A DNA stretch of 22,476 nucleotides from IMG/VR virus record IMGVR_UViG_2541047936_000005, one strand, 5' to 3'. This DNA comes from a virus. Its lineage: Duplodnaviria; Heunggongvirae; Uroviricota; Caudoviricetes. Positions 7,742 through 17,521 of this stretch are shown here, piece after piece (position 1 is the first letter of the stretch; the number at the start of each line of letters is the position of its first letter). Below the pieces are notes generated by a model. It was not told the DNA's origin. It saw only the letters and a program-made list of their open reading frames with translations, and did not search any database. Both the position numbers and the translations under genes were made by a program.

Positions 7742-9592
7742 TTATGCTGCCGGTGCATTTATCTCCAGCATCAGACTTTCTATCTCAACGCCATACGCTG
7801 CATTTTTTGTAACATCCGTCAGCGTCAGCGCATTCAGTCCCAGTGTCAGACTGTCTTTTATAACCTGGAATGCCGGGCCAGCCACTCCATTCAGTTTCGG
7901 AGTAACCGTGGCACTGCCGGCGGTGAACACCAGCTCCAGCGTCTGCCAGTCGTTACCGTAATCGCCGAACTCCCCCAGCTTCGTGTTTCCGGCTTTCCTG
8001 TGATGCATCAGATTCACTCTGCCGTCAGTGGTCTGAGTGAAGTACGACATCAGGAACGGATTACCGGTACCCGTCATCGCCACACCATCAGGAACGGGAG
8101 CATCCGTATACAGATAAATCCCCAGCCCGAACTGATTGTTGGTCAGTGCGCCTGACAGGCGGAACTTACAGGTCAGTCTGCCGCCCTGTGTCAGCAGGGT
8201 AATTGCGTCATCCACCGGATGCGTCAGGGACCAGGTTTTATTGCTCTGCTTGGTGATCTTAAATACACCATCTGACAACTGAATTCCGCCATCCTTAATG
8301 CTCCAGCCCTGCGCAGCAGCCTCTCCGGCTGCCGGCAGCAGGGAGATTGTGCGAACGGACGTATCTGCAGACGGACCCGATGGCGTGTTGCCGCCGGGCG
8401 AGGGTTTGATTTCCGGTGCCTTACCACTGATGAAGGCTGAGGTGCGCCCGGCTGCGTTCAGAATAGCGGTTGCCAGACGATCCGGAATAATGCTCCTGCG
8501 CGCCCATGAACTGAAATGTGTCGGGCGGTTTGATGATACCTGGTTTCCATTCGTTCTCGATGCCGCACCGTAATATCCTGATGCCGGAATATCCGGATCT
8601 TCTGCCGGCGCGTTAGTGGCGGTATTGACGCCGTTACCATCTGTCATGAAGGGCACAAAATAAACGCCCTCACTCTCCCTGTTTTTATACCCGCCGTACA
8701 CGGTGTCGTACTGGGTAGCGTATGTATTTTTCCAGTAATACGTCGTGTCACCACAAACCCACGGCACATCTGCAGCACTGCCACCATGGCACTGCGCGTT
8801 AAACACGGAGAGGTCAGCACGAAACTGTGTCAGCATGGCTGTAAACAGCGCAGGTTGCTGTGCGTGGGTGGCGGCGCTCATGTCAAACTCACCCTGCATC
8901 CAGCAGACGGCCAGCAGAACGTTTTTGGGATTTTTCTGCAATGCCGCTTTTGTGCGGGAAATCAGATCCTGATATAACGGCTTGCCCACCCCCCAGCGTG
9001 CCGAATCCTGACTGGCCCCCGTGGACTCGCTGAATGTCCCCTCCGCGCCCTGGGTAAATGCCGAACCACCACGACAGCATGGTACCAGCAGGATCCCCGC
9101 GTTATTCGGGATATACGGGAGCAGTTTTTTGGCAATATGTAAACCCTGACCGACACAGCCGTACTGCCCTTTGCTCAGGTCAGCCCTCGGATGATTCAGC
9201 GTACTCATATCCTGCACATCATGCAGACAGTGGTCAGCCGGAATAATATCGTTATATCTGCAGGCAGCCCCGCCCGGCGTCACTGTACTGCGGCGCGCCA
9301 GCTGTTTAATGCGCGGATCCGGAGCATCGTATGAATCCGGCAGCGGAAGCCCTTCACCGTAAGCCATGGCATTGGACTGCCCGGCCAGTACGATGACGTA
9401 GTACCAATCCGGCTCAGATGAAGGGCCGACCTGTGGCTCTCCTTCAATAGCCACCGCCTGCATCAGTGTGTACGGCGTAATGGCAACCGGTCCGCCGTAT
9501 GGCTGCCAGCCCTCTTTCAGTTTGTGTGTCAGCTTTTCCGCAAGGTCTGACGGCGACGCCGCCCTGACAACATCGTAATGTTTAATCGACAT
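7742..9592 (-). CDS. nanS: Prophage NanS-p-type sialate O-acetylesterase (616 aa)
   Basis: GQSNAMAYG motif typical of SGNH/SASA esterases after an N-terminal domain; size and position immediately upstream of S-R-Rz match NanS-p genes of EHEC lambdoid prophages. Confidence 0.75.
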   Translation of the reverse strand: MSIKHYDVVRAASPSDLAEKLTHKLKEGWQPYGGPVAITPYTLMQAVAIEGEPQVGPSSEPDWYYVIVLAGQSNAMAYGEGLPLPDSYDAPDPRIKQLARRSTVTPGGAACRYNDIIPADHCLHDVQDMSTLNHPRADLSKGQYGCVGQGLHIAKKLLPYIPNNAGILLVPCCRGGSAFTQGAEGTFSESTGASQDSARWGVGKPLYQDLISRTKAALQKNPKNVLLAVCWMQGEFDMSAATHAQQPALFTAMLTQFRADLSVFNAQCHGGSAADVPWVCGDTTYYWKNTYATQYDTVYGGYKNRESEGVYFVPFMTDGNGVNTATNAPAEDPDIPASGYYGAASRTNGNQVSSNRPTHFSSWARRSIIPDRLATAILNAAGRTSAFISGKAPEIKPSPGGNTPSGPSADTSVRTISLLPAAGEAAAQGWSIKDGGIQLSDGVFKITKQSNKTWSLTHPVDDAITLLTQGGRLTCKFRLSGALTNNQFGLGIYLYTDAPVPDGVAMTGTGNPFLMSYFTQTTDGRVNLMHHRKAGNTKLGEFGDYGNDWQTLELVFTAGSATVTPKLNGVAGPAFQVIKDSLTLGLNALTLTDVTKNAAYGVEIESLMLEINAPAA

Positions 9593-9676: not shown

Positions 9677-9703
9677 ATAAAAAAAAGGCTGCGCAATGCG
9701 CAG
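9677..9703 (-). terminator. Rho-independent terminator (tR'-like), GGCTGCGC-AAT-GCGCAGCC followed by U8 on the - strand
   Basis: Perfect 8-bp stem with 3-nt loop and an 8-nt A-run on the + strand (U-run in the - strand transcript). Confidence 0.6.
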
Positions 9704-9857
9704 CCAGAACTCACAAGGAAAATGATAAAAGGAATAACACTAGTGATGTACGCATGGCGCCTCCCGCTAAGTTCTGCAATGATCAAACAGAACTCGCTAC
9801 GTGCCCTTAAAACTCGATCATTTAGCCCCTCCAAGGAGGATTCACCATGCGGTTGAT

Positions 9858-9887
9858 TTTTTAATAAACAGTAAACAAAAAAGTCAA
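9858..9887 (-). promoter_or_regulatory. Sigma70-like promoter on the - strand (TTGACT-N17-TTAAAA), candidate pR'-like late promoter
   Basis: The -35 TTGACT is at 9887-9882 and an AT-rich -10 at about 9864-9859; lies about 160 nt upstream of the terminator at 9677-9703, like the pR'/tR' arrangement of lambdoid phages. Confidence 0.35.
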
Positions 9888-9890
9888 GAA

Positions 9891-10001
9891 TTATTCATTC
9901 TGTTCTTTCATCATCGGCCACAGCAATACCACAATGCCGCAGACCAGAGCGCCATCAGTCAGTACCAACATTATCCTGCTGGTGAAATCCATCATCACCA
10001 T
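9891..10001 (-). CDS. Small hydrophobic peptide (36 aa from ATG, longer if an upstream GTG/TTG is used)
   Basis: MVMMDFTSRIMLVLTDGALVCGIVVLLWPMMKEQNE, predicted single or double TM; directly downstream of the 252-aa membrane protein gene; too short for the ORF track. Confidence 0.3.
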   Translation of the reverse strand: MVMMDFTSRIMLVLTDGALVCGIVVLLWPMMKEQNE

Positions 10002-10134
10002 CACTAAAAGCAGGATCACAACAGCAAGCAGACACAGTTTATAAAACAATGTTCAGAAAACGCATTCAGCATGCCTAAGGTTCTATTCCTACGAATAGCC
10101 AACTTGCAACTTAAAATATTATTTATGCAGCCAA

Positions 10135-10893
10135 TTAAATTCTGGTCCTTACAATATCAACCTGAAGATTCTTATCTTGTGCTGATTGATAAATGACAAA
10201 CCTTTTACTACCTGCATTGAAAGAAGTAGACAAAACCAGACAATTATCATAACGAGCAAGAACATAATACCAACCATCATTATAATTAATCATTTCATAT
10301 TCTTTCTTAAACTGTGGTTTGTAATATCCTGTCAGAAATGAAAAAAGCCAAAAATATGCCACAAAAGCAATCATCACAATCTCAAAAAAATGTTTTTTTA
10401 TAAATGGCTTATCATAGAAGCATGATACCGATAAAAATCGCCCATAAGATCTTATCGAAATTGTAACCGCCAGCGCAATCGCTGCTGACAGTAGCAAAAG
10501 AGGTACCTGAATCTTCTGTCTCAATATAGAAAACTCAATAATTGCCGGCACAAACAATAATTCCACAGCAAAATAAAGGCGAAATACATTTAGCTCTTGC
10601 ATAGAATGTTTTCTTTTCACTGCGAAAAAGAATACAACACCAATACCCCAACCGATAAGAAATATAGCAATGACGATAACTGCAAAAAATAAACTTCTGG
10701 CAACATCATCAACACCTGCACCTACAATCCACCATGGGAAGCCGTAGTAAAAAGAAGTACCCCATCCATAGAAATAAGCACTCCCCCATCCAAGGCATCC
10801 CATGTAGGCAATAAAAAGTGAAGAACTCCTGAGCAGCGCACCATCCTTCATAACCACCCCAATACAAGATGATAACATTGGCTTACAACTCAT
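10135..10893 (-). CDS. Multi-pass integral membrane protein with C-terminal soluble domain (252 aa), function unknown
   Basis: Long ORF in very AT-rich DNA with several hydrophobic segments rich in aromatic residues; no family recognised. Confidence 0.55.
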   Translation of the reverse strand: MSCKPMLSSCIGVVMKDGALLRSSSLFIAYMGCLGWGSAYFYGWGTSFYYGFPWWIVGAGVDDVARSLFFAVIVIAIFLIGWGIGVVFFFAVKRKHSMQELNVFRLYFAVELLFVPAIIEFSILRQKIQVPLLLLSAAIALAVTISIRSYGRFLSVSCFYDKPFIKKHFFEIVMIAFVAYFWLFSFLTGYYKPQFKKEYEMINYNDGWYYVLARYDNCLVLSTSFNAGSKRFVIYQSAQDKNLQVDIVRTRI

Positions 10894-11214
10894 AACAAAA
10901 GCAATTCAATGCCGTCAAGAGGTTACAGGCTAAAAAAACTCTATTACATAGCAGCCAGCATGTTTACCGTACAAGTACAACTCAGGGCATAAAAACTACT
11001 CGGCGGCAGGTTATTGAGACTCATCAATGACATGTAAAAAACGCCCATTATTGGTGTCAAGTTTCCCCAAAGTTATTCAAAAAGTCAATATTATGCCGTT
11101 AATATGTTGCCATCCGTGGCAATCATGGCGCTAACGTGTGATCGCATTCAAAATGTTGTCTGCGATTGACTCTGAACCGCCCCGGGTTTCCTGGAGAGTG
11201 TTTTATCTGTGAAC

Positions 11215-12105
11215 TCAGGCTGCCAGATCATCGTTTCCGATGGAAGCATAATAAGCTTTTTCTGCTTCTGCCGGAGGAGTATGGCCCAGCCTTTCCAGCA
11301 ATCGTCGATTGTTATACCAGTCCACCCACGTGAGTGTGGCCAGTTCCACTTCTGCACGGTTTTTCCAGCTCTTACGGTGTATTACCTCCGCTTTGTAAAG
11401 ACCATTGATGCTCTCCGCCATCGCGTTGTCATACGAGTCGCCTGTACTTCCTGTTGATGCCAGTAATCCGGCTTCCTTAAGCCGCTGTGTGTAGGCCAGC
11501 GATACATACTGAGAACCTTTATCACTGTGATGGACCGTGCCGGACGGTCGACGGGCCCATAACGCCTGCTCCAGTGCATCCAGCACGAATGTCGTTTCCA
11601 TGGACGATGAGACCCGCCACCCCACGATGTATCCGGCAAACACATCAATGATGAACGCCACATAGACGAAGCCCCGCCATGTGCTGACGTAAGTAAAATC
11701 AGCCACCCACAGCTGGTCAGGTCGTTCTGCCACGAACTGACGGTTTACGCGGTCGCCTGCGGCAACGGCTTTCCGGCTGATGGTCGTACGGACCTTTTTA
11801 CCCCGGAGAACACCGGCAAGTCCCATAACCGCCATGAGGCGCGCCACTGTACATCTGGCCACCCTGATTCCTTCCCGTAACAACTGACGCCAGACTTTAC
11901 GCACACCGTACACCTGATGATTTTCATCGTATACGCGCTGTATCTCTCTCTTCAGCCAGTCATCGTGCTGCGCACGGGCACTGCGTTTATCCGGATGATG
12001 TCGCTGTTGCTGACAATGGTAATACGTTGACGGGACAATATGCAGTTCGCTGCATACCGGTCCGACCCCGTACTGCTCACGCAGCTTATCCAGCAGTGGC
12101 ATCAT
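11215..12105 (-). CDS. IS629 transposase OrfB (DDE integrase domain)
   Basis: 296-aa translation matches IS629 OrfB; overlaps orfA at an A6 slippery run consistent with a -1 frameshift. Confidence 0.9.
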
Positions 12106-12428
12106 TTTTTCCAGAGGCGGTCGAACTCCGCCTTCGCAAAATAAGCGGAAGCCTGGCGAAGGATATCGTTACTGCGGCGCAGTTCACGATTTTCACGTTC
12201 CAGCTCTTTCAGACGCTGACGTTCAGCGCTGGTGAGCCCACCATCACCGCCCCCGGTATCCCGCTCATGCTGGCGAACCCAGACACGCAGAGTCTCCGGC
12301 GTACAGCCAATCTTTGGGGCAATGGAACAAATTGCCGCCCACTGTGAGTCATATTCATCCTGACTTTCCAGAACCATACGGACTGCCCGTTGACGGACTT
12401 CGGGGGAAAAACGAGTATTTTTAGTCAT
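12102..12428 (-). CDS. IS629 transposase OrfA (helix-turn-helix and leucine zipper)
   Basis: 108-aa translation [22 protein letters not shown] matches IS629 OrfA. Confidence 0.9.
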
Positions 12429-12482
12429 CCTGTTTACCTCTTTCTCAGGAAGTTTAGTCTCCAGGATTCCCGGGGCGGTTCA

Positions 12483-12893
12483 ATCCCCCAATTTGAGGGA
12501 TGTTTTATCCCTCGTTTTAGGGGATTTTCCCTCGTTTTGAGGGATACACCATTCTGAGATGTTTTTATTTGGTCCAAACATGCCGCCTTGCTGCTTGATA
12601 ATATTCATTCTGACGAGTTCTAACTTGGCTTCATTGCACCGTTTGACAGGTAACTTTGTAATCTCGCTAAGTTGAGAATCGGTGATTCTGTCCATTGGTT
12701 TATTCCACCCATAGGTTCTACGCAGAATGGCAAGCAGCACTTTAAACTGTCGCTTGGTCAGATCTGCGCCTGAATAAGCCTCAAGCAGCATATTTGATAG
12801 TCTGGCGTAACCATCATCGAGATCTGCCACATTACGCTCCTGTCCGGCAAAGTTACCTCTGCCGAAGTTGAGTATTTTTGCTGTATTTGTCAT
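12483..12893 (-). pseudogene. O: Lambda replication initiator O, truncated after about 136 codons by IS629
   Basis: N-terminus MTNTAKILNFGRGNFAGQERNVADLDDGYARL matches lambda O (299 aa in lambda); the reading frame runs into the IS terminal repeat and stops. Confidence 0.85.
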
Positions 12894-12903
12894 AATGACT
12901 CCT

Positions 12904-12980
12904 GTTGATAGTTCCAGTAATAACCTCAGAATTCCATCTGGATTTGTTCAGAACGCTCGGTTGCCGCCGGGCGTTTTTTA
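12904..12980 (+). ncRNA. oop: oop antisense RNA with its terminator
   Basis: Sequence GTTGATAGTTCCAGTAAT...GTTCAGAACGCTCGGTTGCCGCCGGGCGTTTTTTATT matches lambda oop, antisense to the cII 3' end; a CATAAT -10 lies 7 bp upstream. Confidence 0.8.
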
Positions 12981-13219
12981 TTGGTGAGAATCGAAGCAAC
13001 TTGTCGTGCCAATCGAGCCATGTCGTCGTCGACGACACCCCATTCAAGAACAGCAAGCAGCATTGAGAACTTTGGAATCCAATCCCTCTTCCACCTGCTG
13101 ATCTGCGACTTATCAACTCCCACAGCTTCCGCTGTCTTCTCAGTTCCAAGCATTGCGATTTTGTTAAGCAACGCACTCTCGATTCGTAGAGCCTCGTTGC
13201 GTTTGTTTGCACGAACCAT
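12926..13219 (-). CDS. cII: Transcriptional activator CII (97 aa)
   Basis: MVRANKRNEALRIESALLNKIAMLGTEKTAEAVGVDKSQISRWKRDWIPKFS matches lambda CII. Confidence 0.9.
   Translation of the reverse strand: MVRANKRNEALRIESALLNKIAMLGTEKTAEAVGVDKSQISRWKRDWIPKFSMLLAVLEWGVVDDDMARLARQVASILTNKKRPAATERSEQIQMEF
13197..13210 (+). promoter_or_regulatory. pRE -35 region with CII-binding direct repeats TTGC-N6-TTGC
   Basis: TTGCGTTTGTTTGC as in lambda pRE, overlapping the cII start; drives + strand transcription toward cI. Confidence 0.7.
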
Positions 13220-13298
13220 ATGTAAGTATTTCCTTAGATAACAATTGATTGAATGTATGCAAATAAATGCATACACCATAGGTGTGGTTTATTTTGAT

Positions 13299-13330
13299 GC
13301 CCTTTTTCAGGGCTGGGATGTGTAAGAGCG
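13299..13330 (-). promoter_or_regulatory. nutR (boxB GCCCTGAAAAAGGGC and boxA CGCTCTTAC on the - strand)
   Basis: boxB reverse complement at 13299-13313 and boxA reverse complement at 13322-13330, between cro and cII. Confidence 0.75.
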
Positions 13331-13338
13331 GGAATGTC

Positions 13339-14691
<1,353 letters not shown>

Positions 14692-14741
14692 TCCCCACCT
14701 CAATCTCGATAACAAAAAAACAAACTATTTTCCGTTTAAAA

Positions 14742-14814
14742 ACAATGGAGTTTGTTTTTCACGCCCCTTTTTACAATATTTCTTGTTTACAACATACAAT
14801 CTTCCTTGTAATTT
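14742..14814 (+). promoter_or_regulatory. Left operator OL3-OL2-OL1 (434 type) overlapping promoter pL
   Basis: ACAA-N6-TTGT sites at 14742-14755, 14773-14786 and 14796-14809; -35 TTTACA (14786-14791) and -10 TAATTT (14809-14814) with 17-bp spacing; transcript start near 14821 (ATCAGCAGGACGCACTGACC as in the lambda pL leader). Confidence 0.8.
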
Positions 14815-14854
14815 TAAGCCATCAGCAGGACGCACTGACCACCATTGAAGGTGA

Positions 14855-14885
14855 GGCTCTTAAAAATTAAGCCCTGAAGAAGGGC
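14855..14885 (+). promoter_or_regulatory. nutL (boxA-like GGCTCTTAA and boxB GCCCTGAAGAAGGGC)
   Basis: boxB hairpin at 14871-14885; boxA-like sequence at 14855-14863. Confidence 0.8.
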
Positions 14886-15042
14886 AGCATTCAAAGCAGA
14901 AGGCTTTGGTGTGTGTGATACGAAACGAAGCATTGGCCGGAAGTGCGAATCCGGATTAGCTGCCAATGTGCCATTGCGGGGTGTTTTCGTTCAGGACTAC
15001 GACTCCCACACACAACCAAAGCTAACTGACAGGAGAATCCAG

Positions 15043-15366
15043 ATGGATGCACAAACACGCCGCCGCGAACGTCGCGCAGAGAAACAGGCTCAATGGAAAG
15101 CAGCAAATCCCCTGTTGGTTGGGGTAAGCGCTAAACCAGTTAACCGCCCTATTCTCTCGCTGAATCGCAAACCGAAATCACGAGTAGAAAGCGCACTGAA
15201 TCCGATAGACCTTACGGTGCTGGCTGAATACCACGAACAGATTGAAAGCAACCTGCAACGTATTGAGCGCAAGAATCATCGAGTTTGGTATAGCAAGCCA
15301 GGTGAGTTCGGTATAACTTGTCAAGGAAGACAAAAGGTTAAAGGGGAATCCATTCCATTGGCATGA
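15043..15366 (+). CDS. N: Antiterminator N (107 aa)
   Basis: MDAQTRRRERRAEKQAQWKAANPLLVGVSAKPVNRPILSLNRKPKSRVESALNPIDLTVLAEYH matches lambda N; the listed ORF starts upstream at a GTG. Confidence 0.95.
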   Translation: MDAQTRRRERRAEKQAQWKAANPLLVGVSAKPVNRPILSLNRKPKSRVESALNPIDLTVLAEYHEQIESNLQRIERKNHRVWYSKPGEFGITCQGRQKVKGESIPLA

Positions 15367-15374
15367 GGTACGTA

Positions 15375-16244
15375 ATGAAGAAGATTGATTACAAGTCCAT
15401 ACCAAAACCAATAGACTCAGCATCAGAGCGAAAAAAACACAAAAAAGAGGCTGAAAAATTAGCAAATTATATCAGTTTTATTAGAAACAATGCTCACGGC
15501 GATGGCGACAAGAAGTTGCTTTCAGATGCTCGGACCCAAGCGTTCGGTATACTTCGTAAGCAGATGCAATATCGTCTTCATCCTGGCTACATAATTGAAA
15601 TTCGCCCTACTGAAAGACAATTGTTCTTATTAAACTCTGTCTTTGACTTTGTAAACGTAGTTGGAGATCTTATCGACAGGTCTGTAGATAAGGATCCTGA
15701 TACAAATAGTTTTCTTCTAACAAATAAAGAATACTTATATGGTAAATTCGGTATAAACGGATGGCAAAAATATGTACGCTTCTTACGTGCATTCGTTGAT
15801 GCGTATAAAAATTCCGACATGATTTATACATATTTGCCTGGTGGTGATAATTGTACGCTTTCGGCAGACAATAGAATATTCATACCTGTACTTGGTCTTG
15901 GGCTGATTAATGCAGTAAATGAAAAAGATGTTATAATTGTTAAGCAGTGGCGAAAATATGAGGGATATAGATATCTGCCATGCTTTGATATATTAAAAAT
16001 ACAGAATAAATTCTATGTAAAAATTAAATATAAAGAAGATATTTTCTTCCTCAGAAAAAACATAGATCTTTTACAAGAACTTTCTGGTACAATAGATGTC
16101 ATCTTAGGTTCTAGGTTTATAAAAGAACTGAAAGAAAGCAGGTCTTTCTCTCGTGTAGAGATAAGCGAGTCAGAGTTATGGGGTATATCAAATAATCCTG
16201 TAAACCACGCTCACCAACGAAACCCAAACAAAAAGTGGTCATAA
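15375..16244 (+). CDS. Uncharacterised 289-aa protein in the ral/sieB position (pL operon accessory gene)
   Basis: ORF overlapping or abutting the N stop (ATG at 15363 or 15375, the latter with GAGG 6 nt upstream); AT-rich; Lys-rich N-terminus; no recognisable motif; lambda ral and sieB are absent. Confidence 0.55.
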   Translation: MKKIDYKSIPKPIDSASERKKHKKEAEKLANYISFIRNNAHGDGDKKLLSDARTQAFGILRKQMQYRLHPGYIIEIRPTERQLFLLNSVFDFVNVVGDLIDRSVDKDPDTNSFLLTNKEYLYGKFGINGWQKYVRFLRAFVDAYKNSDMIYTYLPGGDNCTLSADNRIFIPVLGLGLINAVNEKDVIIVKQWRKYEGYRYLPCFDILKIQNKFYVKIKYKEDIFFLRKNIDLLQELSGTIDVILGSRFIKELKESRSFSRVEISESELWGISNNPVNHAHQRNPNKKWS

Positions 16245-16386
16245 CCCGCTCAGGCGGATTTCATTTTCACGCAAACAACAGAATAAACACAGCGCTGTGT
16301 ATTCATTCCAACGAGTGAATACACGGAGCAATGTCGCTCGTAACTAAACAGGAGCCGACTTGTTCTGATTATTGGAAATCTTCTTT

Positions 16387-16413
16387 GCCCTCCAAGATGA
16401 GGGCGATTTTTTA
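16387..16413 (+). terminator. Rho-independent terminator upstream of ea10 (GCCCTC-CAAGAT-GAGGGC then T-tract)
   Basis: 6-bp GC stem followed by GATTTTTTA. Confidence 0.45.
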
Positions 16414-16432
16414 TCTGTGAGGATATGAACAG

Positions 16433-16801
16433 ATGTCAAACATCAAAAAATACATCATTGATTACGACTGGAAAGCATCAATAGAAATTGAAATCGACCA
16501 TGACGTAATGACAGAGGAAAAACTTCACCAGATTAATAATTTCTGGTCAGACTCTGAATACCGACTCAATAAACACGGCTCTGTATTAAATGCTGTATTA
16601 ATCATGCTGGCGCAACATGCTCTGCTTATAGCAATTTCAAGCGACTTAAATGCATATGGTGTTGTGTGTGAGTTCGACTGGAATGATGGAAATGGTCAGG
16701 AAGGATGGCCTCCAATGGATGGTAGTGAAGGAATAAGAATTACCGATATCGATACATCAGGAATATTTGATTCAGATGATATGACTATCAAGGCCGCCTG
16801 A
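16433..16801 (+). CDS. ea10: Ea10 (122 aa)
   Basis: Translation MSNIKKYIIDYDWKASIEIEIDHDVMTEEKLHQINNFWSD matches lambda Ea10; length and spacing to cIII as in lambda. Confidence 0.9.
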   Translation: MSNIKKYIIDYDWKASIEIEIDHDVMTEEKLHQINNFWSDSEYRLNKHGSVLNAVLIMLAQHALLIAISSDLNAYGVVCEFDWNDGNGQEGWPPMDGSEGIRITDIDTSGIFDSDDMTIKAA

Positions 16802-16873
16802 GCGCGGCGTTACCGCATACCAATTACGCTTCACTCGAGGCGTTTTTCGTTATGTATAAATAAGGAGCACACC

Positions 16874-17038
16874 ATGCAATATGCCATTGCAGGGTGGCCT
16901 GTTGCTGGCTGCCCTTCCGAATCTTTACTTGAACGAATCACCCGTAAATTACGTGACGGATGGAAACGCCTTATCGACATACTTAATCAGCCAGGAGTCC
17001 CAAAAAATGGATCAAACAATTATGGCTATCCAGACTAA
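16874..17038 (+). CDS. cIII: CIII (54 aa), inhibitor of FtsH-mediated CII degradation
   Basis: [54 protein letters not shown] matches lambda CIII; below the ORF-track size cut-off. Confidence 0.9.
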   Translation: MQYAIAGWPVAGCPSESLLERITRKLRDGWKRLIDILNQPGVPKNGSNNYGYPD

Positions 17039-17150
17039 ATTCACTATCGCCACTTTTATTGGCGATGAAAAGATGTTTCGTGAGGCCGTCGACGCTTATA
17101 AAAAATGGATATTAATACTGAAACTGAGATCAAGCAAAAGCATTCACTAA
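17007..17150 (+). CDS. kil: Kil (47 aa), host cell-division inhibitor
   Basis: [47 protein letters not shown] matches lambda Kil; overlaps cIII and gam as in lambda. Confidence 0.9.
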
Positions 17151-17521
17151 CCCCCTTTCCTGTTTTCCTAATCAGCCCGGCATTTCGCGGGCGATATTTT
17201 CACAGCTATTTCAGGAGTTCGGCCATGAACGCTTATTACATTCAGGATCGTCTTGAGGCTCAGAGCTGGGCGCGTCACTACCAGCAGATAGCCCGTGAAG
17301 AGAAAGAGGCAGAACTGGCAGACGACATGGAAAAAGGCCTGCCCCAGCACCTGTTTGAATCGCTATGCATCGGTCATTTGCAACGCCACGGGGCCAGCAA
17401 AAAAGCCATTACCCGTGCGTTTGATGACGATGTTGAGTTTCAGGAGCGCATGGCAGAACACATCCGGTACATGGTTGAAACCATTGCTCACCATCAGGTT
17501 GATATTGATTCAGAGGTATAA
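17105..17521 (+). CDS. gam: Gam (138 aa), RecBCD inhibitor
   Basis: Matches lambda Gam, including the internal GamS start [21 protein letters not shown]. Confidence 0.95.

Follow-up and report, generated by a model that had tools for sequence, protein, structure and literature searches.

The minus-strand segment 9887–9679 of the window, by which we mean the whole 22,476-nucleotide stretch of DNA analysed here, very probably encodes PasD2, a prophage sRNA of the PasD/STnc100 lineage that depends on Hfq and acts by base pairing. The gene closes a cassette of cargo genes in a prophage whose antiterminator gene Q has been lost to an insertion sequence (IS). The first-pass annotation of this DNA had recognized a TTGACT-N17-TTAAAA promoter on the minus strand and a strong terminator behind it, and both are present, at 9887–9859 and 9705–9679. 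It had interpreted the pair as the pR'/tR' layout of a lambdoid late region, with a membrane-protein gene in the place of Q. We found that the promoter, the short leader and the terminator are all real, but that they make up an sRNA gene that has already been described: the unit is 100% identical to pasD2, and the real pR'/qut lies further upstream, at 11088–11053.

PasD1 and PasD2 are abundant, Northern-validated RNAs of 172–173 nt in EPEC O127:H6 E2348/69, and their stability depends on Hfq (Pearl Mizrahi et al. 2021, PMC8550237). Table S6 of that study places PasD2 at NC_011601 741157–741328, a length of 172 nt, between E2348C_0687 and E2348C_0688. Positions 9900–9660 of the window are 100% identical both to this pasD2 locus of E2348/69 (PP2) and to phage 434. 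The published 5' end of PasD2, which in E2348/69 is based on RNA-seq coverage and Northern size and not on a primary-transcript method, maps to G9850, 7–8 nt past the -10 element, and the published 3' end falls on the final T of a T8 run, at 9679. A transcript start near 9850, on which the first-pass annotation had staked its interpretation, thus coincides with the 5' end of a known RNA. Furthermore, the published Northern probe CATGCGCAGCCAGAACTCACAAGG has a single mismatch to the window, the same one reported for PasD2, and the synteny is that expected for PasD, namely a lambdoid prophage, near Q, upstream of a sialate esterase and a holin. Identity with the validated E2348/69 locus shows that a 172-nt Hfq-dependent RNA is made from sequence identical to 9850–9679. 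The EHEC homologue of PasD is EcOnc13 of Tree et al. 2014, as cited in PMC8550237; our literature search for EcOnc13 found nothing.

The pasD promoter (9887–9851, minus strand) is recognized from its sequence, from a block conserved in relatives and from its position relative to the PasD2 5' end. Its -35 element is TTGACT (9887–9882), followed by a 17-nt spacer and by TTAAAA (9864–9859), the -10 hexamer of the first-pass annotation. In an alternative register the -10 hexamer is TAAAAA (9863–9858) and the spacer is 18 nt. The usual final T is missing from the -10 hexamer, and a generic promoter scan did not list the promoter because TTAAAA lacks A2 and T6. The block is kept across diverged relatives (48 distinct upstream sequences) with the consensus TTGtcT-N17-(TG)TTAAAA...GCA at fixed spacing, and this conservation indicates that it is more than chance. 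It is also present in copies that have no tciB upstream, for example behind a DNA methylase. In the mechanism we propose, a sigma-70-type promoter would start PasD2 transcription at G9850.

The RNA itself (9850–9679, minus strand; 172 nt) consists of a structured 5' domain, the seed UGUGAG (9715–9710) and an intrinsic terminator. The assignment draws on the identity to the E2348/69 locus, on a match to the STnc100 model, on the fold, which beats shuffled sequences (z = -2.9), and on the terminator. The seed matches the published one and sits just 5' of the Rho-independent terminator and its U tract. The terminator stem (9705–9687) has 8 bp, seven of them G-C pairs, and runs into the T8 stretch (9686–9679, U8 in the RNA); it lies about 145 nt past the promoter and has a folding energy of -16.8 kcal/mol (z = -4.4). 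PasD2 would present a folded 5' domain, a single-stranded seed and a U8 terminator tail that serves as the Hfq site. From the RIL-seq motifs in EPEC (PMC8550237), PasD appears to pair through UGUGAG with CUCACA(GG) sites, and PasD2 would be expected to act in trans on mRNAs that carry such sites, from core as well as from accessory genes; the targets all come from RIL-seq in EPEC.

In a permissive scan, the Rfam STnc100 model (RF02076) matched 9880–9676 over its full length (model positions 1–206) at 41.4 bits (E = 3.9e-7), which falls below the gathering threshold of 47 bits. The RNAs at the corresponding position in PPyecE_EH1910, Evi and JLK-2012 score as genuine STnc100 members, at 145, 120 and 107 bits, respectively. 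PasD and STnc100 share an ancestor and are treated as related but separate (Zhu, Shabalina and Storz 2026). We collected the family from viral contigs through its invariant 5' motif GCATGGTGAATCCNCCT, and found it to be modular, with a conserved 5' domain and a variable 3' seed and terminator. RNAalifold on 23 representatives gave a closing helix and the helices P2, P4 and P5. Helix P4 has compensatory changes in three pairs; the closing helix could show no covariation because the search pattern had fixed its 5' strand. PasD has the closing helix, P2 and P4, and is without P5. A DUF3927 ORF ends 32–118 nt upstream of the sRNA in 75 of the 137 family copies (55%), indicating that tciB and the sRNA often travel together. 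The same sRNA unit is found downstream of stx2, methylase or tciA cargo as well, and in Stx2 phages one family copy lies 75 nt after stx2. Among the 62 loci with a locatable Q, which represent four Q types, the distance from the Q stop to the sRNA ranges from 411 to 3,378 nt. As it is never shorter than 411 nt, in no case is the pasD unit the first transcript made from pR'. We had also considered the STnc100 family as the pR' initial transcript of some phage, and this was ruled out by the same minimum distance.

What became of Q is recorded at the upstream end of the cassette. An IS629/IS1203-type element of the IS3 family (12482–11173, minus strand; 1310 bp), annotated IS1203/IS629 in matching records, joins a truncated O gene to a stump of Q. 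It has the terminal repeats TGAACCGCCCCGGG at both ends, an orfA of 108 aa, an orfB of 296 aa and an ALIL frameshift pseudoknot, a -1 frameshift signal, at 116.9 bits; there is no target duplication in the flanking triplets gat and gag. Directly abutting it are the last 13 codons (ESIADNILNAITR) and the stop codon of a lambda-type Q (11172–11131, minus strand), identified by alignment with the Q genes of 2B8 and mEp234 and annotated as an antitermination protein in matching records. On its other side lies the N-terminal remnant of the replication gene O (12893–12483, minus strand), identified by its identity to 434. The remnant ORF has 137 aa (12480–12893), and its stop codon falls just inside the IS. 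The region 12480–17500 is 99.9% identical to phage 434 and includes the 434 immunity region; O is the replication initiation protein there. With the O N-terminus on one side and the Q stump on the other, the IS stands in for about 6 kb of a 434-like phage, comprising the O C-terminus, P, the nin region and Q. Hence Q was lost through the IS629-type element, and the first-pass annotation was right to consider a loss of Q. The element appears to have taken the place of all sequence between the middle of O and the last 13 codons of the lambda-type Q. The IS::Q junction occurs in 0 of 5,426 complete E. coli genomes, and the O::IS junction gave three full-coverage matches in E. coli, each made up of two separated pieces and none contiguous.

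Just past the Q stump, the window retains a lambda-type late promoter pR' with a qut-like spacer (11088–11053, minus strand). The first 180 nt after the IS are 91–92% identical to the Q-3'/pR'/qut regions of HK022, HK97 and mEp234, in which promoter and qut are annotated, and their matches are to the 3' end of Q genes of the lambda/HK022/HK97/P22 type; the pR' region is identical to that of phage 2B8. The promoter has the -35 element TTGACT (11088–11083), the spacer TTTTGAATAACTTTGGG (11082–11066), the -10 element GAAACT (11065–11060) and a start site at about 11053. The spacer resembles lambda qut TATTGAATAAAATTGGG, from which the pasD promoter spacer TTTTTGTTTACTGTTTA differs. This pR' lies 43 nt past the Q stop, whereas the pasD promoter lies about 1,240 nt and the pasD start 1,280 nt past it. 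Since the Q remnant and pR' are upstream of the membrane-protein gene, that gene is downstream of Q and pR' and does not stand where Q should be, as had been proposed; its slot is the one in which other phages carry stx, tciA-tciB or a methylase. The Q remnant, the pR'/qut and the IS had all gone unnoticed in the first pass.

The stretch between pR' and the late genes differs among these phages in its terminators. In 434 and mEp234, a tR' hairpin follows pR' (-13.7 and -16.6 kcal/mol, respectively). The counterpart of the 434 tR' in the window and in 2B8 is degenerate, at -2.2 kcal/mol, which is no better than shuffles. A search of the pR'-to-cargo leader for structure found none (z = +1.3), and a custom terminator scan from pR' to the cargo found a hairpin inside an ORF only. 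The tR' hairpin is missing in 8 of 8 lambda-Q loci and present in most 434-type loci, the E2348/69 copy being unscored in that scan. In the lambda-Q arrangement, then, polymerase leaving pR' meets no strong terminator before that of pasD, which may act there as the de facto tR'. A further proposal concerns the whole lambda-Q (2B8-type) cassette. PF27470, TciB and PasD could be read together in lysogens as one long leader transcribed constitutively from pR'. PasD would then have two sources, pR' and its own promoter, and the pasD terminator, about 1.37 kb past pR', would be both the late operon's first effective terminator and the Q-controlled gate to nanS-p and lysis. We put this forward tentatively and consider it somewhat unlikely on the sequence at hand. 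If it is true, this Q-less prophage would have the cassette locked on and the lysis genes off.

These results bear on the view that 9887–9679 is itself a pR'/qut/tR' and that its short RNA is a Q-regulated late leader like lambda 6S RNA. The order of promoter, short terminated RNA, nanS-p and lysis genes is indeed lambda-like, there is no other strong terminator between the real pR' and the pasD terminator in the lambda-Q arrangement, and the pasD terminator may be the first barrier for Q-modified polymerase. However, a separate lambda-type pR'/qut lies directly after the Q stump, the spacer of the pasD promoter is unlike the lambda Q-binding element, the unit is found behind stx2, methylase and tciA cargo alike, and its distance from the Q stop, spanning 411–3,378 nt behind four Q types across the 62 related loci, is 1,280 nt here and 1,281–1,294 nt in 7 of 7 other lambda-Q loci. 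The late-leader view is therefore highly improbable. A different origin would be 3'-end processing, by which PasD would be made mainly from a longer PF27470–tciB mRNA begun at pR' or at a cargo promoter, with the promoter-like hexamers playing a minor part. The genes share an orientation with no terminator between tciB and pasD, the tciB gene precedes more than half of the family copies at the short distance given above, and no tR' intervenes between pR' and the cargo here. Against this, the -35/-10 block keeps a fixed distance from the RNA 5' end, also behind methylase or stx, RpoD binding has been reported at STnc100 promoters in Salmonella, and PasD abundance in EPEC is very high (PMC8550237). 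We regard processing as an improbable main source of PasD, although, given that no terminator separates tciB from pasD, part of the PasD RNA could come from longer transcripts in this way.

The third alternative is that the region encodes a protein and the transcript is a small mRNA. Phage 434 carries the annotation 'putative membrane protein' (CPT_434_70) for a 62-aa ORF with a TTG start (9834–9646, minus strand), which has one hydrophobic stretch; of the STnc100 copies in EDL933, 11 are transcribed and some show ribosome footprints. The ORF overlaps pasD, and its reading frame continues across the pasD terminator. Five of nine close PasD-type variants have frameshifts in it that change the hydrophobic part, and relative to Evi and JLK-2012 it has indels that are not multiples of 3. 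It has no match in Pfam or PHROG and only a far sub-cutoff match in NCBIfam, and RefSeq makes no call of it in E2348/69. We judge it to be a non-gene, since a 62-aa membrane protein has very little probability on this evidence, and the phage 434 record probably contains a mis-annotation at CPT_434_70, with an ORF in place of the sRNA. The right label for the segment is pasD2, an sRNA of the PasD/STnc100 lineage, and neither a late-promoter leader nor a 62-aa membrane protein.

The cassette that pasD2 closes contains two membrane-protein genes. The larger one (10851–10135, minus strand) encodes a PF27470 ('TfpB'/STM1630-family) inner-membrane protein, assigned from homologue labels and hydropathy. 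Its longest ORF reaches 10893 and would encode 252 aa, the size given in the first-pass annotation, but translation most likely starts at 10851, which yields the 238 aa seen in nearly all homologues. The description as a multi-pass membrane protein holds: hydropathy indicates about five TM helices, followed by a C-terminal beta-rich domain of about 55 aa (AF2 secondary structure, pLDDT 59). All 108 of 108 homologue matches carry the precomputed label PF27470, with the Pfam name TfpB, the origin of which our literature search did not trace; in PHROG the protein belongs to family 1521, 'unknown function'. An exhaustive profile search of 1.84 billion proteins yielded only 75 cluster representatives, all of about 240 aa and with no fused domains. 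The family is thus small and is confined to enterobacteria. Members are also found in Yersinia prophages, about 280 nt past Q, and STM1630 is a solitary copy adjoining sseJ in Salmonella. In the papers covered, which report no phenotype for it, STM1630 figures only as a member of motility-mutant panels and as a gene up-regulated in macrophages without an intracellular-replication phenotype. Pfam, NCBIfam and PADLOC gave nothing on the function of the protein, a profile search of PDB sequences gave no match, and a Foldseek search of BFVD with the AF2 model, which is poor (pLDDT 59), gave no match at E ≤ 0.001; ten remote family members had no significant Pfam match.

The second cargo gene is tciB-like (10049–9891, minus strand) and encodes a 52-aa DUF3927 protein from a TTG start, with two hydrophobic TM helices by hydropathy. 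The first-pass annotation had called a 36-aa hydrophobic peptide here. The assignment to PF13064 has E = 3.4e-14 (53 bits against a cut-off of 25), and PHROG 1470, 'TciB-like', matches at E = 2.5e-17. The name is taken from phage P1 tciB, a gene without an assayed function. The AT-richness noted for these upstream genes is borne out, with a GC content of 36% as compared with 45% for the window and 56% for nanS-p. The suggestion of a new cargo module at the late junction was half right. The pair is cargo, but it is not new, as PF27470 and TciB are a known late-leader cargo that is 100% identical in phage 434 and occurs in phage 2B8 and in about 680 complete E. coli genomes. In intact 434/2B8-type phages, the cassette PF27470–DUF3927/TciB–pasD lies between Q–pR' and the first late genes.

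Directly after the pasD terminator, as the first-pass annotation had stated, come a nanS-p-like gene and the lysis cassette. The first late gene is the nanS-p-like esterase (9592–7742, minus strand), with the domains DUF1737, SASA and DUF6645 by Pfam and with corresponding annotations in 434, 2B8 and E2348/69; it is followed by a class II holin, an endolysin and Rz. Between esterase and holin, a PasA-like sRNA (7508–7592, plus strand) lies antisense, as found by alignment with E2348/69 pasA, the coordinates of which are given in table S6 of PMC8550237. The mean column identity is 97%, with an identical 3' half and a variant 5' portion of about 40 nt, and a second terminator at 7719–7742 matches the published 236-nt minor form of PasA. 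The arrangement PasD2–esterase–PasA–holin has been described by Zhu, Shabalina and Storz 2026.

Taken together, the prophage is best read as a 434-like remnant from which the IS629-type element removed Q. It is cut off again after Rz, carries nleB2, nleH and cif, and has no tRNA genes in the window. The pR'/qut at 11088–11053 survives without its antiterminator. From this anatomy, polymerase started there or at any cargo promoter (a candidate is TTGTTA-N18-TATCAT at 10898–10869) should, without Q, stop at the pasD terminator. The nanS-p and lysis genes beyond it should then be largely silent, while pasD would stay expressed through its own promoter. This decaying prophage keeps two sRNAs, two small membrane-protein genes, a sialate esterase and T3SS effectors.

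The cassette can be compared with several known systems. Among the late-region morons of phage 434 (Feiss et al. 2022, PMC9119081), positions 42053–43488 are 100% identical to 10995–9560 of the window, where the identity to 434 runs from 10995 onward, and share the membrane protein, TciB, the terminator and the esterase. Phage 434 differs in having a third small ORF annotated instead of the sRNA and in carrying a Q82-type Q, whereas the window, like phage 2B8, keeps the 3' end of a lambda-type Q. In E2348/69, the entire 172-nt PasD2 RNA, its promoter and its flanks are identical to the window, and the neighbours are the same: a DUF3927 gene upstream, a SASA esterase downstream, and PasA between esterase and holin. 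In both E2348/69 and 434, the cassette follows an LpxR–YlcG–Q82-type module with its own tR'; in the window it follows a lambda-type pR' whose Q gene an IS deleted. STnc100 (RF02076), an sRNA that prophages of Salmonella and EHEC carry in multiple copies, occupies the same late-leader place as PasD, after the cargo and before nanS-p or holin. The two have in common the promoter block, the 5' sequence GCAUGGUGAAUCC and, among the helices, the closing helix, P2 and P4, but helix P5 (CCGGG...CCCGG) of STnc100 is missing in PasD, and the 3' seed and terminator differ. Lambda 6S RNA (pR'–tR') and StxS of Stx phages, the latter also an Hfq-dependent sRNA, have their start at pR', right behind Q, and include qut. 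Like PasD, they are short terminated transcripts encoded ahead of the lysis genes in the late region; PasD differs from both in having its own promoter 1.28 kb further down, behind the cargo genes.

The PasD2 gene is accompanied by a second small RNA gene in the same prophage, as we found a PasA-like sRNA gene (7508–7592, + strand) lying in antisense orientation in the interval between the esterase and holin genes. The 3′ half of this RNA is identical to PasA of E2348/69, and its first ~40 nt are variant and resemble the published PasA-2 class. It has a TTGACA promoter element (7474–7479, +) and a second terminator (7719–7742, +) that is consistent with the 236-nt minor form.

Two copies of the STnc100-type sRNA, a relative of PasD2, are present on each of several viral contigs (L011, L014, L023, L024, L032, L038, L045, L072, L077, and L087). 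The spacing within a pair is typically 230–480 nt but reaches about 2.1 kb in L038, and the two copies differ in their internal hairpins and 3′ tails. In the prophage PPyecE_EH1910 (L006), the gene for the anti-sRNA AgvB (2858–2919, − strand; 96.5 bits) directly follows the STnc100 copy on the opposite strand, and multiple sRNA genes are therefore grouped at that junction. The RIL-seq targets of PasA include the mRNA of the PF27470 membrane-protein gene, E2348C_0686 (about 10690–10720 in the window), and those of PasD2 include lpxR, E2348C_0684 (PMC8550237), which hints that the cassette sRNAs regulate adjacent cargo genes.

In the phage 434 record (L001), pasD and its terminator are overlapped by CPT_434_70 (3662–3850, equivalent to 9834–9646 in the window), a GenBank "putative membrane protein". 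Because this reading frame is frameshifted in close relatives, CPT_434_70 is probably a mis-annotation. The PF27470 gene has a chromosomal homologue of 46% identity on a Salmonella contig (L128, 4001–4717), at the STM1630 position adjoining sseJ. This homologue is solitary, accompanied by neither tciB nor the STnc100/PasD-type sRNA gene, and has the look of a phage cargo gene that the host has domesticated.

The prophage itself is a stripped remnant carrying effectors: in the region after Rz (1–6150, − strand), all that precedes the T3SS effector genes nleB2 (4656–5636, −), nleH, and cif is a remnant of a tail-fibre gene. On the other side of the cargo, an IS629-type element (11173–12482) is flanked by a truncated O gene and by the last 13 codons of Q, with no target duplication at its ends. 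The junction between the element and Q was found in none of 5,426 complete E. coli genomes, and for this reason the O-to-Q deletion looks lineage-specific.

The early and immunity region (12480–17500), including the 434 cI and cro genes, is 99.9% phage 434, and its early-left operon contains the lambda cIII thermoregulator element (16861–16919, +; Rfam RF01804, 88.5 bits). The Q stump and pR′ (11044–11172) are of the lambda/2B8 type; the Q of 434 is of the Q82 type. Phage 434 has a tR′ hairpin, AACCCGCTGCCGAGTGGG-T8, whereas its counterpart in the window (10985–11025, −) and in phage 2B8 is the degenerate AACCTGCCGCCGAGTAG-T5 (−2.2 kcal/mol), and the window has no terminator between pR′ and the cargo genes. 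Upstream of the LpxR-YlcG-Q82 insert, phage 434 itself retains the N-terminal part of a lambda-type Q, and the arrangement in the window may therefore reflect the state that predates the arrival of that insert.
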